Assembly (NCBI GenBank): GCA_964579435.1
Contig: CAZOGI010000003.1
Location: 47,321 to 111,320 of the forward strand
Reading direction: 5' to 3'
DNA length: 64,000 nt
Origin: an uncultured Planctomycetales bacterium
Lineage (GTDB): Bacteria; Omnitrophota; Gorgyraeia; Gygaellales; Profunditerraquicolaceae
Positions 2,097 to 63,199 of the stretch are shown here, piece after piece. Numbering within the stretch: the stretch's first letter is position 1; each line of letters opens with the position of its first letter. Under the pieces are notes generated by a model. That model did not search any database. It was not told where the DNA came from and saw only the letters and a program-made list of their open reading frames with translations. A program made the translations under genes and the position numbers.

Positions 2097-3124
2097 GAAG
2101 CCGTGCGCGCGCCCAGATTACCATCGTTGCGCTCTGGATATTGGCGCTCCTGAGCATGGTGGCGGTGAGCCTGGCGCACCGTGTTTCTCTTTCTCTGCGC
2201 GTAAGCGCGTATTACCGCGACAGCCTCGCTGCCCTGGCTGCGGCTCAGAATGCCCTCGCCGTGGGGTACCATCTGCTTGCCCAGGATGTCAATGCGTATG
2301 AAACGCTCGCCGAGCCATGGGCCGAAAACGAAGAACTGTTGCGGTCGGTTCCCAACGGCGAGGGAGCGGTAGGGTCGGTGTGCTACCGCGCGGTCGATGA
2401 GGGGACAGGGACCGTCAAAACGGTCTTTGGCATGGCGGATCTTGAGCGGCGCGCCTGCGTCAACAGGACCGATACGCTCGGAAAAGCGGTATTCCTGGAG
2501 ATCCTGCTGCAGGCCGATGTCGCCGAGTCGCAGGCGGCCGAGGTAGGCGCTCTCCTCGTGAACTGGATCGATGAAGATTCAAACGAAGAGCCTGATTTCT
2601 TCAAGAATAAACCGCTGGTCGTACCCGAAGAGCTCCTGGCGGTCCTGGAGCAGTATTTTCGGGAGAAGCGCTACGATGATTTTCGCGCCCGCGCCCGCGC
2701 GCTCTATGAGGGGATCGAACCGTATCTGACGGTGTACGGCAGCGGGAAGGTCAACGCCAATACCGTCGGGGAACGGGTCCTGCGGGCCTTCTGCCGGGCA
2801 GTGGCGTCAGCCGAAGAAAAAGCGGTCGCCGAGAGCGTTGCCCTCGCCCTGATCGAAGAGCGTGCCCGGAGGCTCGCGGATGCCCCGGACCAGGCGCCTT
2901 TCCCGAGCGCCGACAGCCTTTCTGTCCCTTCAGGCGATTCTGCCGCACTCTCCTTTCTGGCTAAGCTCAAGGCAGAAGCCGATCAGGTTTTTCTCTTTGA
3001 TGCGTCGGGTTTTTTCTGCATCGAAGCTTCCGGCACTGTCAGTTCCCGGACGCGGCGGGTGCGCGCGGTCTTTGAGCGTACCGGCAGCGGCACCCTTGCC
3101 CTGCGCGGATGGCAGCAGGACTAA
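2093..3124 (+). CDS. Minor pseudopilin GspK-like protein
   Basis: N-terminal hydrophobic helix without Glu+5 (ITIVALWILALLSMVAV), ~340 aa, position after GspJ; typical of GspK. Confidence 0.55.
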   Translation: MRSRARAQITIVALWILALLSMVAVSLAHRVSLSLRVSAYYRDSLAALAAAQNALAVGYHLLAQDVNAYETLAEPWAENEELLRSVPNGEGAVGSVCYRAVDEGTGTVKTVFGMADLERRACVNRTDTLGKAVFLEILLQADVAESQAAEVGALLVNWIDEDSNEEPDFFKNKPLVVPEELLAVLEQYFREKRYDDFRARARALYEGIEPYLTVYGSGKVNANTVGERVLRAFCRAVASAEEKAVAESVALALIEERARRLADAPDQAPFPSADSLSVPSGDSAALSFLAKLKAEADQVFLFDASGFFCIEASGTVSSRTRRVRAVFERTGSGTLALRGWQQD

Positions 3125-5158: not shown

Positions 5159-5322
5159 AATCCCGCGTTCGTGTGCTATACTTAAATTGTAAACGCACCA
5201 TTTGACAATTTGACACAAGCACCCTACTGAAAAGGGCAAACCAGGAGCGATCCTGGGGCGCAAAGCTATCGGTCCGCCACGAAGCGACGGCGGACGGCCG
5301 GGCTGCCAAAGAGGGGCACTAT

Positions 5323-21583: not shown

Positions 21584-21751
21584 CGTGCGTTTCCGCGGGC
21601 GCCCTGCCGGATACGTTTTAAGCTTTTTAAGGCAAAAAGCTTAAAAACCTCCTTTACAATAGGTTAATAATCTGTTATATTTTAAAATTCAGGTCCCTGT
21701 TTTTTATGGGAAGGGCCCTGTGCAGGCTATTCGGATCGTTATGCAATTTAA

Positions 21752-21825
21752 GGGCCCATAGCTCAGTCGGTCAGAGCAGGTGACTCATAATCACTTGGTC
21801 GGAGGTTCGAATCCCCCTGGGCCCA
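21752..21825 (+). tRNA. tRNA with CAU anticodon (elongator Met or Ile2/lysidine type); 74 nt, no encoded CCA
   Basis: Cloverleaf: acceptor GGGCCCA/TGGGCCC, D arm GCTC..GAGC, anticodon loop CTCATAA, T loop TTCGAAT; G1-C72 paired, so not initiator-type. Confidence 0.8.
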
Positions 21826-21866
21826 TGCTCAAATAAGGGTTCGGATTGGAGAGAGGGTGGGGATTT

Positions 21867-22110
21867 GTTCGCCCCGTTTCGTCGTGATTAAGAGGGAATA
21901 AACACCTCAATGACTCACGGGACCTCACTAAATAGAAGCTGTAGATGTTCGTCCCGTTTCGTCGTGATTAAGAGGGAATAAACACCTCAATGACTCACGG
22001 GACCTCACTAAATAGAAGCTGTAGATGTTCGTCCCGTTTCGTCGTGATTAAGAGGGAATAAACACCTCAATGACTCACGGGACCTCACTAAATAAAAACT
22101 GTAGGTGTTC
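21867..22110 (+). repeat. Three nearly identical 80-bp direct tandem repeats (21867-21946, 21947-22026, 22027-22106) plus a 4-nt GTTC start of a fourth copy, filling the spacer between two tRNA genes
   Basis: Unit GTTCG[C/T]CCCGTTTCGTCGTGATTAAGAGGGAATAAACACCTCAATGACTCACGGGACCTCACTAAATAGAAGCTGTAGAT; copies 1 and 2 differ by 1 nt, copy 3 diverges only in its last ~15 nt. Confidence 0.85.
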
Positions 22111-22187
22111 GGGCATTTAGCTCAGCTGGTTAGAGCGCGTGCCTCACATGCACGAGGTCAGAGGTTCAAGTCCTCTAATGCCCACCA
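22111..22187 (+). tRNA. tRNA-Val (anticodon CAC), 77 nt with encoded CCA
   Basis: Acceptor GGGCATT/AATGCCC, anticodon stem CGTGC/GCACG, loop CTCACAT, T loop TTCAAGT, 3' ACCA followed by a T-run. Confidence 0.85.
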
Positions 22188-22222
22188 TTTTTTGACACTA
22201 CCCTACAAGGGGAGGCCGTTTC

Positions 22223-22954
22223 GTGACTGAACGCAGCCTGAAAGAACAACTGAGGCAACTCTGCGAGCTGCAGAAGATCGATAGCCGGGCATACGCCCTG
22301 CGCAACGAGAAAGACGCTCTTCCCGCCAAGATCAAGGCGATCGAAGCCGCTTTCGAAGAAAAAAAACGGCACCTCGCCGAACTGGAGAAGGCGTCTTTGG
22401 ATGTCCAGAAACAGCGTAAAGACCGGGAGTTGGAACTGGCCGCCAACGAGGAGAGCCGTAAAAAACTGCAGACCCAGCTCTACGCCCTCAAGACGAACAA
22501 GGAATACCAGACGATGCTGCAGCAGATTGCCGACACCAAGGCCGATGCCTCGGTCATCGAGGATAAGATCCTTGTTCTCTTCGATGATGCCGACCGGGTC
22601 CGTAAAGAGCTCGAGCAGGAGAAATCGCGTCTGCAGGGGGAAGAGAAGCTGATGAGCGAGGATACGGGCAAGATCCTCTCCCGCGAAAAAGAGATCTCCG
22701 GCCAGCTCGCCGAACTCGACGCGCAGCGTCAGCGGATGCTCCCGGATATAGACAAAAAACTCTTCTCCCGGTACGAGCGCATCTTGAGCAGCCGCGACGG
22801 GCTGGCGATCGTCGGGGTTCAGAACAATTCCTGCATGGGCTGCAACATGTTCGTCCCGCCCCAGGTGATCAATCTTATACGGGGATACGAGAGTCCCGTT
22901 ACCTGCGAAGTCTGCAACCGCATCCTGTTCATTGATGACGAGCCAGCCGCTTGA
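22223..22954 (+). CDS. Coiled-coil / C4 zinc-ribbon protein (COG1579-like)
   Basis: Long coiled-coil followed by CMGCN...CEVCNRIL zinc ribbon; GTG start with GGGGAGG RBS. Confidence 0.6.
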   Translation: MTERSLKEQLRQLCELQKIDSRAYALRNEKDALPAKIKAIEAAFEEKKRHLAELEKASLDVQKQRKDRELELAANEESRKKLQTQLYALKTNKEYQTMLQQIADTKADASVIEDKILVLFDDADRVRKELEQEKSRLQGEEKLMSEDTGKILSREKEISGQLAELDAQRQRMLPDIDKKLFSRYERILSSRDGLAIVGVQNNSCMGCNMFVPPQVINLIRGYESPVTCEVCNRILFIDDEPAA

Positions 22955-23435
22955 GTTTTTTATCGACGGCGCTTCCAAGGGCAATCCCGGGCACGCGGGT
23001 ATCGGGGTCGTCGTGACGCGCGGCAAGGAGACGATCCGCACCATCTCCGAATATATCGGCGAAGCGACCAATAATACCGCCGAGTACCGCGCGCTGCTGC
23101 GGGCGTTGCGCGAAGCGGTTGGCCTGCGCGCTTCGAGCGTGCGGATCTTTTCCGATAGCGAGCTTTTGTGCCGACAGGTGAACGGACAGTACCGGGTGAA
23201 AGATCCGCATCTGCGGTTGCTCTTTCAGGAAGCGACGCAGCTGCTTTCCCGTTTCGCGCTCATTTCGGTAGAGCATATCAGGCGCGAGGAGAACAGCGGC
23301 GCCGACCGGCTCGCCACGCTGGCGGTGAAAGAGCATTTGAAGACAACTCATCAGTCCGGTTTCGGCAGACAGCGAGTGGCCGCTCCGCTTACCAAAAGCG
23401 GAGAGGAAAGTCCGGGCTCCGGAGGGCAAGCGTAG
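22932..23435 (+). CDS. RNase H (type 1, RVT_3-like) family protein; the 3' ~70 nt of the ORF run into rnpB, so the true stop or functional end may be earlier
   Basis: FIDGASKGNPGHAGIGVVV...TNNTAEYRALLRAL...DSELLCRQ...NSGADRLA are RNase HI catalytic blocks (DEDD). Confidence 0.6.
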   Translation: MMTSQPLEFFIDGASKGNPGHAGIGVVVTRGKETIRTISEYIGEATNNTAEYRALLRALREAVGLRASSVRIFSDSELLCRQVNGQYRVKDPHLRLLFQEATQLLSRFALISVEHIRREENSGADRLATLAVKEHLKTTHQSGFGRQRVAAPLTKSGEESPGSGGQA

Positions 23436-23722
23436 CGGGTAACTCCCGTCCTGCGGTACCTGCCGCAGCGGATAGCTTTTGCCTCATACGCAGAAGCCAC
23501 AAACGCGTGATCGTTTCGTTTGTGAGAGCCACAGAGACGAGTCCCCGCCAACGGCGGGGGGTGAAACGCGGCAATCTCTACGCGGAGCAAGGCCAAATAG
23601 GAGACGAGGGCGCCCTCCCCGTCATTTAGTCTCGGGTTGGCTGCTTGATCCCGGCGGCAACGCCGGGGCTCAGAGGAATGGCCACGTAGGTAAAACAGGA
23701 CCCGGCTTATGCTGTCTGCCGT
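23362..23722 (+). ncRNA. rnpB: RNase P RNA (rnpB), bacterial type A
   Basis: Universal blocks GAGGAAAGTCCGGGCTCC (P4 5' strand), GGTAACTCCCG, AGCAAGGCCAAATAGG, ACAGGACCCGGCTTA (P4 3' strand); P1 pairing GGCAGACAGC / GCTGTCTGCC; T-rich tail. Confidence 0.85.
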
Positions 23723-23767
23723 TTTATTTAGACGATAAAACACCTAAGGACGTAAAGGAGGAGTCAG

Positions 23768-34928: not shown

Positions 34929-35138
34929 CCGTTCTTCTTCCCGTCGAGCCTCCGGTGTTTTCCCGCAGTGAAAACGCTTTCCCGTTCGCTCTGTTTGCGT
35001 CTTGAAATGCAAGCAGTTATGAGAAATACTTTAAGCGGAAAATGGAGCTTCACGAGAAAGGCAAATCGTTCGTCCGGGATGGCGAATGAGGCGCAAAGCC
35101 AAGGATCCCCACCAGCCACAGGAGCATCACCGGGGATA

Positions 35139-35187
35139 GCCGGGTTGCCGAAGGAATCATTTAGAAAATGGGCAACCCGGCTTTTTA
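35139..35187 (+). terminator. Intrinsic terminator (11-bp stem GCCGGGTTGCC...GGCAACCCGGC plus TTTTT) downstream of plsY
   Basis: Perfect 11-bp inverted repeat with a 21-nt loop and T-run. Confidence 0.45.
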
Positions 35188-42665: not shown

Positions 42666-42934
42666 CCCCTTTGGCAACCCCGCTATCCGCCATTACCGCA
42701 TTGGCGGACCGGAAGCTTTGCGCCCTAGCATTACTGCTAGTTTGCCTTTTTCAGAAGGACTGTTACCTGATTGTCAATTTAACCCCGTTAGAATTTCCCA
42801 ATCTTGCTTTCAGCCACACCATTTCTCTAACGGGGCTACTATAAATATAGCATACAATTCTAAAATGTCAAGGCTGGCAAATGATTTTTTGCGAAATTGC
42901 ACCGTTGCATTTGCACAAAATGCACCGGGCGCGC

Positions 42935-62881: not shown

Positions 62882-63199
62882 ATGAAACGGATCTTCGTCG
62901 TATTGTTCTTGGGGGTGTTCGTCCTGTCGGCTCCTGTGGCGTTCGCAAAGGAAAAAGGAAAGCCCAGCAGCAAGGCGTATGAGCGCGCTTCCGAGAACGC
63001 GGCTTTTAAAGACGCCGAGAAATTGAAGAAAGAGGCGGAGCGCGAAGCGGAAAAGTCGAAGAAGAAAGCCGAGAAAGAAGCCGCGAAAGCACAGAGAGAA
63101 GCGGAAAAGGCAAAGAAGAAGGCCGAGAAAGAAGCTCAAAGAGCGAAGAATAAGGCCGCGCGCGATGCGGCAAAGCTCAAAGAAGGCGCTGCGCAGTAA
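62882..63199 (+). CDS. Secreted low-complexity protein with (A/K)EKEA-type charged repeats
   Basis: Signal peptide MKRIFVVLFLGVFVLSAPVAFA; repeats KKAEKEAAKAQREAEKAKKKAEKEAQRAKNKA. Confidence 0.45.
   Translation: MKRIFVVLFLGVFVLSAPVAFAKEKGKPSSKAYERASENAAFKDAEKLKKEAEREAEKSKKKAEKEAAKAQREAEKAKKKAEKEAQRAKNKAARDAAKLKEGAAQ

Follow-up and report, generated by a model that had tools for sequence, protein, structure and literature searches.

The tyrT-tyrV operon of Escherichia coli is followed by a 178-bp unit repeated 3.1 times with 95% identity. This array shares 19 nt with the 3' end of tyrV, and rttR and the tpr ORF are annotated within it. According to PMC3318445, which refers to Bosl and Kersten 1991 on this point, a single tyrT repeat unit encodes rttR, and as described there the operon offers a model for a by-product RNA coming out of spacer repeats. 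Other points of comparison for tandem repeats in bacteria are the VNTR or minisatellite loci that arise by slipped-strand mispairing and the CRISPR arrays.

Here, we describe an 80-bp tandem repeat located between a tRNA(CAU) gene and a tRNA-Val gene in the window, i.e. the whole 64-kb stretch of DNA that was analysed. As far as layout can tell, the E. coli tyrT operon repeat (rttR) is its closest analogue. Both consist of about 3.1 near-identical units within a tRNA transcription unit, both are anchored on the end of a tRNA gene in a manner that fits unequal exchange, and both contain small basic ORFs. However, the E. coli unit comes after the last tRNA of its operon, whereas that of the window lies between two tRNAs and shares just the leader and G1 with tRNA-Val. 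Judged from its sequence, the array is not a member of the rtT/RttR family: its unit holds no 3' segment of the adjacent tRNA, and it has neither a sequence relationship with that type nor an Rfam match. An RNA product is known for the E. coli system, while the window array is known from sequence alone.

As for VNTR loci, the window array resembles them in its head-to-tail copies of high identity, the microhomology at its borders, edges that are more divergent than the interior and the length polymorphism to be expected from these features. Its position is less usual, between co-oriented tRNAs of a conserved cluster and hence in a tRNA operon, and it is represented by one genome. Like a CRISPR array, it is a regularly spaced repeat with a palindrome, but it has no unique spacers. 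The entire 80 bp repeat, with perfect periodicity over 222 bp, and a CRISPR identity was rejected on these grounds.

The array and its transcription unit

Tandem Repeats Finder reports a single array at positions 21866-22111 (on the + strand, like all features given below unless stated), with a period of 80, 3.1 copies, 97% matches, no indels and a score of 464. A window-wide repeat search showed it to be the sole substantial tandem repeat of the 64 kb. The array fills most of the 285-nt spacer between the two tRNA genes, as delimited with ARAGORN and Rfam. The original prediction had described three near-identical 80-bp copies followed by the GTTC start of a fourth, and these programs confirm it. 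Copy 2 (21947-22026) serves as the reference unit. Copy 1 (21867-21946) differs from it by one substitution, having C at 21872 where copy 2 has T at 21952, and copy 3 (22027-22106) by three substitutions close to its 3' end, at 22095, 22098 and 22105. The alignment of the copies thereby bears out what had been noted before, namely a single difference between the first two copies and a third that diverges at its 3' end. What there is of a fourth unit is GTTCG (22107-22111), the final G of which is base 1 of tRNA-Val.

All four substitutions thus map to the outer edges of the array: copy 1 is changed at position 6, and copy 3 at positions 69, 72 and 79. Both internal junctions have the same sequence, and the perfectly periodic part extends from 21873 to 22094. 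A 36-mer of the unit, with up to three mismatches allowed, occurs three times in the window, against 0.00 occurrences expected by chance. The array has TGTTCG at both borders, on the left at 21866-21871 and on the right at 22106-22111, where its last G is again base 1 of tRNA-Val. The four bases GTTC open every unit and double as the 5' leader of tRNA-Val, the leader UGUAGRUGUUC being common to tRNA-Val and to the start of each unit. The unit has a GC content of 45%, below the 59.6% of the window, which fits the expectation for a non-coding spacer. The remaining 5' part of the spacer is a unique stretch of 40 nt (21826-21865) without significant similarity to either tRNA.

Upstream of the tRNAs, the repeat search detected an AT-rich perfect inverted repeat with 13-nt arms (21616-21646). 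It is probably the terminator hairpin of the upstream gene and would set the upstream limit of the tRNA transcription unit. A candidate sigma-70-like promoter, TTTACA-17 nt-TATATT with a TG extension (21653-21681), called purely on its consensus match (10/12), lies about 70 nt upstream of the first tRNA. That tRNA, with anticodon CAU and no encoded CCA (21752-21825; Rfam 70.6 bits), is labelled tRNA-Met by ARAGORN. In alignments, its anticodon arm, variable loop and acceptor stem are much closer to those of E. coli ileX than of metT, and by these features it is probably a tRNA-Ile2. The tRNA-Val (anticodon CAC, 22111-22187; ARAGORN, Rfam 72.3 bits) has an encoded CCA, which is followed by a T6 run. 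The transcription unit likely comprises the promoter, tRNA(CAU), the spacer and tRNA-Val, and a signal scan found no promoter-like or terminator-like site inside the array. Further downstream are a gene for a Zn-ribbon/coiled-coil protein (22223-22954; Pfam CT398_CC and Zn_ribbon_9) and one for the RNase P RNA of bacterial class A (23365-23723; Rfam 167 bits).

The same locus in relatives

Homologues of the Zn-ribbon protein come almost all from Candidatus Omnitrophota MAGs. The nearest is about 67% identical, one entry with 100% identity, presumably from this very genome, having been set aside. With the Zn-ribbon gene as the anchor, 80 syntenic loci from GTDB species representatives were collected by alignment of 35 homologues, and two further loci were added by exact-protein match, giving 82 related loci. 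ARAGORN places tRNA(CAU) and then tRNA-Val directly upstream of the Zn-ribbon gene in 79 of them. The RNase P RNA gene is at the matching downstream position in 17 of the 19 relatives searched. One contig (L001) stops 90 nt upstream of the Zn-ribbon gene and contains no tRNA.

The length of the spacer varies widely. It amounts to 3-57 bp in 56 of the 79 relatives and to 72-426 bp in the other 23, with a median of about 17 bp; in L002, for instance, the two tRNAs are 12 bp apart. With 285 bp, the window spacer is the fourth longest among 80. Because the two tRNAs of relatives are nearly adjacent, the window array represents a derived insertion or expansion. The spacer of this tRNA pair is a hot spot in Omnitrophota. 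Of the 23 long spacers, about 14 include a partial tRNA(CAU) copy, derived from the 3' part of the gene, and three include the 5' part of tRNA-Val. In three genomes, tandem duplications run into one of the two tRNA genes (198 bp x 1.9 in L009, 124 bp x 2.1 in L019 and 106 bp x 2.2 in L079). Their units are 97-99% identical, and we read them as young.

The repeats or partial tRNA copies of L009, L019, L079, L065 and other relatives share with the window array the locus, the kind of event, the high identity of the units and an unusually long spacer or flank. The relatives' repeat units carry recognisable pieces of tRNA(CAU) or tRNA-Val, however, and that of the window does not. In addition, the arrays of L009 and L079, which are inside the spacer, are strongly structured (z of -5.6 and -7.9, respectively), unlike the window unit, which has the highest copy number. 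Five other loci (L015, L048, L058, L065 and L072) have hairpins flanked by the halves of a T arm (GGTTC ... GAAYCC) and followed by a tRNA 3' end. No T-arm-flanked hairpin insert of this type was found in the window with a regular expression and alignments.

Several features of the relatives' spacers are worth recording for themselves. Their hairpins, with TCCCG/CGGGA at the base of the stem, or a 20-nt palindrome sit exactly in the T loop (TTC..GAA) of partial tRNA copies. Among the spacers is also a tRNA-Val that appears to be split by an insert bearing a tRNA-Val of its own, and a conserved element of about 150-250 nt with a tRNA-like 3' end recurs. The partial tRNA copies, the T-loop hairpins and the tRNA-tailed element match no Rfam family above threshold, and a literature search retrieved no description of Omnitrophota tRNA spacers.

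Searches for homologues of the unit

No further copies of the unit were found in the 64-kb window by pattern search, blastn or covariance model, and an interspersed repeat of the REP/BIME or MITE type was rejected, as there are no dispersed copies in the 64 kb by the same three methods. The unit is also missing from the 82 related loci according to blastn, Smith-Waterman alignments compared with shuffles (p = 0.75) and the covariance model. This model was built from the three copies and, when run on the window and the 82 loci, it recovers just those three. The BLASTN comparison with relatives that had been recommended at the outset returned nothing, in the related loci or in the rest of the window. 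Exact 18-20-mers of the unit, words that miss diverged copies, gave 0 matches in genome_contigs, metagenome_contigs and viral_contigs.

A scan of the whole window with Rfam at gathering thresholds found nothing in the array. When positions 21600-22300 were scanned at E up to 10, the matches inside the array were solely chance ones to snoR35 (E = 3). A known RNA family was rejected as the identity of the unit on the basis of these two scans, which had been proposed as a way to reveal tRNA-like or ribozyme families and gave no family match in the array. The tRNA model RF00005 has no match in the units at E up to 10, and ARAGORN detects the two flanking tRNAs at the locus and no cloverleaf in the units. 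When the unit is aligned locally with tRNA-Val and tRNA(CAU), the scores are at shuffle level (p 0.3-0.86), and a degenerate tRNA copy was rejected. Over both tRNAs and both strands there is no significant similarity (p 0.08-0.86), G1 of tRNA-Val alone being common to them. The view that the array is neither CRISPR-like nor tRNA-like was correct.

Some short resemblances were followed up and discarded. The 11-nt GTGATTAAGAG is complementary to the anticodon arm of tRNA(CAU), but an antisense relationship was rejected (alignment p 0.08-0.63, duplex energy p 0.49). The motifs TCGTCGTGATTAAGAGG, AGGTGTTCG and TCCCGTTTC, which the unit has in common with elements of the relatives, are at chance level (p = 0.75). 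The first of these is also found in L079, again at chance level.

RNA structure

RNAfold predicts an interrupted 16-bp hairpin for the unit, with an energy of -19.1 kcal/mol. In copy 2 (21951-22003), its helices are GUCCCGU/ACGGGAC, GUCGU/AUGAC and GAGG/CCUC. The hairpin begins exactly at the position equivalent to tRNA +1. The complementary hexamers GTCCCG and CGGGAC of the original prediction are indeed in each unit, the first reading GCCCCG in copy 1. In contrast, the nested CGTGA/TCACG pair that it also described was overstated. The 3' side of that pair overlaps CGGGAC by CG (TCACGGGAC), so that the two pairs cannot both form fully, and the second helix of the RNAfold structure is GUCGU/AUGAC instead.

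The stability of the unit gives z of -1.31 and -1.35, and 19-21 of 200 dinucleotide shuffles fold equally well. For the whole array, z is -0.44 and -0.52 relative to dinucleotide shuffles and +0.11 on the reverse strand. For a reconstructed spacer with a single unit, it is +0.45. Folds within a unit and across units have the same energy of -19.1 kcal/mol, and the lone substitution in the stem (U to C at 21872) converts a U-A pair into an uncompensated C.A. With such z values, registers of equal energy and an uncompensated stem change, the expectation of a structured RNA is not supported. As for the relatives, 21 of their 23 long spacers have z of -2.3 or lower, down to -7.9. As most of them are predicted to be strongly structured, the locus can hold functional RNAs. 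It is conceivable that the hairpin of the window unit serves as a processing site or gives a stable by-product RNA.

Discussion

We propose that an 80-bp piece of transcribed spacer, in a conserved tRNA(CAU)-tRNA-Val operon of an Omnitrophota bacterium, underwent a lineage-specific tandem amplification that produced the array, and we give this explanation a probability of roughly 0.65. It was set against relatives no closer than about 67% protein identity in the neighbouring gene and against 64 kb of the organism's own genome. A recent expansion by slippage or recombination was among the possibilities raised originally, and it finds support in the almost adjacent tRNAs of relatives, the TGTTCG borders, the restriction of the substitutions to the edges and the duplications in three other genomes.

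The ancestral spacer would have been about 125 nt long and would have contained a single unit with TGTTCG, a 6-nt direct repeat, on either side. The second TGTTCG would be made up of the tRNA-Val leader and the tRNA's G1. At this microhomology, slippage during replication or unequal crossing-over could have generated the duplication. With one unit between the TGTTCG repeats, either event gives a period of exactly 80. Later unequal exchanges among the copies would have shifted their number and homogenised the interior of the array, leaving its outermost edges divergent. Divergence at the edges only is expected in that case because unequal crossing-over homogenises the interior and never replaces the outermost edges. 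By our own estimate, a single duplication followed by random mutation would place all four changes at the edges with a probability of roughly (26/246)^4. From the edge pattern, we infer that the array is dynamic and that its copy number has changed more than once. Judging from this one genome, the copy number is probably polymorphic.

A promoter upstream of 21752 probably drives one transcript that holds both tRNAs and the array. During maturation, RNase P would then cut off the spacer RNA at the 5' end of tRNA-Val, and 3' trimming and CCA addition would complete its removal at the CCA-less tRNA(CAU). Most likely, the array RNA is spacer that is discarded during tRNA maturation, and the array probably has no sequence-specific function of its own.

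Alternatively, as with RttR/rtT of E. coli, processing of the tRNA precursor might turn the units into stable small RNAs, each about 80 nt long, with RNase P cleaving before each unit and amplification raising the dosage. The leader and G1 that every unit has in common with tRNA-Val would suit such cleavage, but they are the automatic outcome of where the duplication borders lie. The unit is predicted to form helices of 7 and 5 bp, the 7-bp stem starting from +1 and being followed by CUCA. Nevertheless, an internal loop parts the two helices, unlike in an acceptor/T minihelix, the z of -1.3 is not significant and the fold across units is equal in energy. The analogous E. coli tyrT repeat does yield a stable RNA, with rttR annotated inside it, and an RNase P RNA gene lies 1.2 kb downstream of the window array. 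On the other hand, the units are not scored by the tRNA covariance model, they are not conserved among the related loci and the stem substitution of copy 1 is uncompensated. All in all, we regard stable RNAs of this kind as unlikely. In the same vein, the suggestion that a small RNA was amplified in tandem here, or that the array is an element for processing of the operon, has gained no positive evidence, with no internal promoter-like or terminator-like site and no Rfam family. A more far-reaching version, to which we give long odds, would make the tRNA(CAU)-tRNA-Val spacer of Omnitrophota a site dedicated to the landing and amplification of small RNA-like elements. The 80-nt unit would be one lineage's version of them, released by RNase P at every GUUC-G boundary as a stable RNA whose dosage is set by amplification. 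That reading would bring together hairpins placed exactly in T loops, structured RNAs with a tRNA tail and repeats that are anchored on the ends of tRNAs.

It is very unlikely that the unit is a decayed or amplified small mobile hairpin element like those in the T loops of relatives. The succession GTTC-G-TCCCG...CGGGA-C in the unit does resemble the GGTTC-TCCCGN...NCGGGA of L015, L048, L058, L065 and L072, with the 9-mer TCCCGTTTC in common with L048, and insertions make this spacer a hot spot in about 23 of 79 relatives. However, the best local alignment of the unit to the long spacers scores 18, against a mean of 18.9 for shuffles (p = 0.75), the array is devoid of the flanking T-arm halves and tRNA 3' end that are present in every relative's element, and no second locus in the 64 kb has the unit. 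An assembly artefact, be it a real repeat with a wrong copy number or a wholly mis-joined array, also has a low probability in our view. The source is a MAG contig, the 222 bp of perfect periodicity exceed typical de Bruijn k-mers and approach short-read length, and the contig of L001 breaks off, without tRNAs, 90 nt upstream of the Zn-ribbon gene. Yet assemblers usually collapse tandem repeats rather than create them, the outer copies have substitutions of their own and clean junctions with unique sequence on one side and an intact tRNA-Val on the other, and comparable tandem repeats are found at this locus in independent assemblies of other genomes. The exact copy number of three is not guaranteed if the assembly was made from short reads. 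Finally, the array could in principle encode small basic peptides of 23 aa (+ strand) or 26 aa (- strand), one per junction, reminiscent of the tpr ORF annotated within the E. coli repeat. The ORF listing contains such repeated frames, MTHGTSLNRSCRCSSRFVVIKRE (+) and MRSRESLRCLFPLNHDETGRTSTASI (-). They have just 23-26 codons, though, in a unit whose length is no multiple of 3, a distance of 13 nt separates the + strand ATG from the closest GAGG, the last of the three + strand copies has changed and extends into tRNA-Val, and there is no conservation in any relative, which makes coding extremely improbable.

A tandem amplification of transcribed spacer, our preferred explanation, would most likely make the array a new case of an event whose kind is already known, with an ordinary explanation. 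It illustrates cleanly how microhomology can mediate tandem amplification in a tRNA operon, and it matters little by itself. For this uncultured lineage, it could probably provide a length-polymorphic marker, and it calls for caution when such loci are assembled and annotated. More value lies in the comparison set, which shows, for a phylum known only from metagenomes, one conserved tRNA pair with spacers of anything between 3 and 426 bp. The variable spacer of other Omnitrophota is a more interesting lead than the window array. If any of the elements of these relatives are functional RNAs, or a new type of element that targets T loops, the tRNA(CAU)-tRNA-Val locus would be the place to study them.

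The tRNA pair and its surroundings

The first gene of the tRNA pair that lies upstream of the Zn-ribbon gene, called tRNA-Met(CAU) (window positions 21752-21825), is probably a tRNA-Ile2, judging from its sequence. In alignments, Escherichia coli ileX (tRNA-Ile2, lysidine) is a much better match than metT, and the match spans GCAGGYGACTCATAATCRCTTGGTCG together with C4 and C5 of the acceptor stem. The CCA end is encoded in the window tRNA-Val gene and is absent from the tRNA(CAU) gene. Each copy of the 80-bp unit that fills most of the spacer between the two tRNA genes contains GTGATTAAGAG (e.g. 21884-21894), which is complementary at 10 of 11 positions to nucleotides 21784-21794 of tRNA(CAU), corresponding to the anticodon loop and the 3' strand of its stem; the only non-complementary position is the middle base of the anticodon. 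This complementarity tested at chance level, and we rejected it as a candidate interaction.

Young tandem duplications, with 97-99% identity, are found at the same tRNA pair in three of the syntenic loci of related Omnitrophota genomes, hereafter designated by L-numbers (L009 2464-2839, L019 2012-2271 and L079 2556-2793). In each case, the duplication extends into one member of the pair. L079 also harbours a second, near-complete tRNA-Val downstream, whose T loop carries a 31-nt insert. The contig of L001, a homologue that ranks among the nearest two (67% identity), carries no tRNA and has just 90 nt (positions 1-90) on the upstream side of the Zn-ribbon gene; the assembly may have broken at the tRNA locus.

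Elsewhere in the window, a weak, A/G-rich tandem repeat (33 bp x 2.0, 78% matches) is present close to the end, at 63093-63158. Three c-di-GMP riboswitch aptamers, two of the c-di-GMP-I type and one of the c-di-GMP-I-GGC type, are found within the 64 kb (5225-5310, 35050-35152 and 42669-42755 (minus strand)). c-di-GMP-I aptamers also occur near the tRNA pair in related loci such as L048.

A conserved spacer element with a tRNA-like tail

The spacers of L009 (two copies), L013, L014, L022, L027 and L068 contain a conserved element of approximately 150-250 nt, of which L005 has a truncated copy. It comprises a core, CCGACGACCAAAAAGGGGTGCGGGGAAA..TTTTCCCCGCG..GGGGTGACA, a variable middle part and a tail that consists of tRNA(CAU) sequence running from the variable loop through the T arm to the 3' acceptor strand. 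RNAalifold predicted 48 pairs, and compensatory changes occur in 8 of these. The sole match of the element was to Clostridiales-2 RNA, below the threshold (25.7 bits, with 58.6 required).

Apparent insertions in T loops

In several relatives, the T loop of a 3' fragment of tRNA(CAU) holds an insert made up of two hairpins, with the pattern TTC|TCCCGN..NCGGGA|TCCCGN..NCGGGA|GAA (L015 2797, L048 2774, L058 349, L065 1684 and 1792, and L072 2486), with similar inserts in L007 and L028. The stem bases are invariant across loci and the loops bear no relation to one another; the inner stems vary in a compensatory manner, as exemplified by TCCCGCATC/GATGCGGGA vs TCCCGTTTC/GAAACGGGA. We found no Rfam family for this insert.

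In L072, the region at ~2620-3000 holds, in this order, a tRNA-Val-like copy (positions 1-58), ~60 nt, an intact tRNA-Val (2743-2818), a stretch of ~120 nt that closes with a TCCCGCC..GGCGGGA hairpin, and GAATCCTATATCGCCCACCA. This arrangement reads as an insert of ~260-330 nt, with a tRNA-Val of its own, that splits the resident tRNA-Val in its T loop.

Finally, CCTGCCTGCCGGCAGGCAGG, a perfect 20-nt palindrome, occurs at L009 2643, L010 2574 and 2921, and L014 2797, and also at L030 2121, L031 191 and L036 4432; L014 and L036 harbour one variant of it. In partial tRNA(CAU) copies, its position in the T loop is exact, with TYCG on one side and AAYCC on the other, and a partial tRNA-Val copy of L010 carries it at the same position. 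The placement recurs in three different genomes and has the appearance of a site-specific palindromic insertion.
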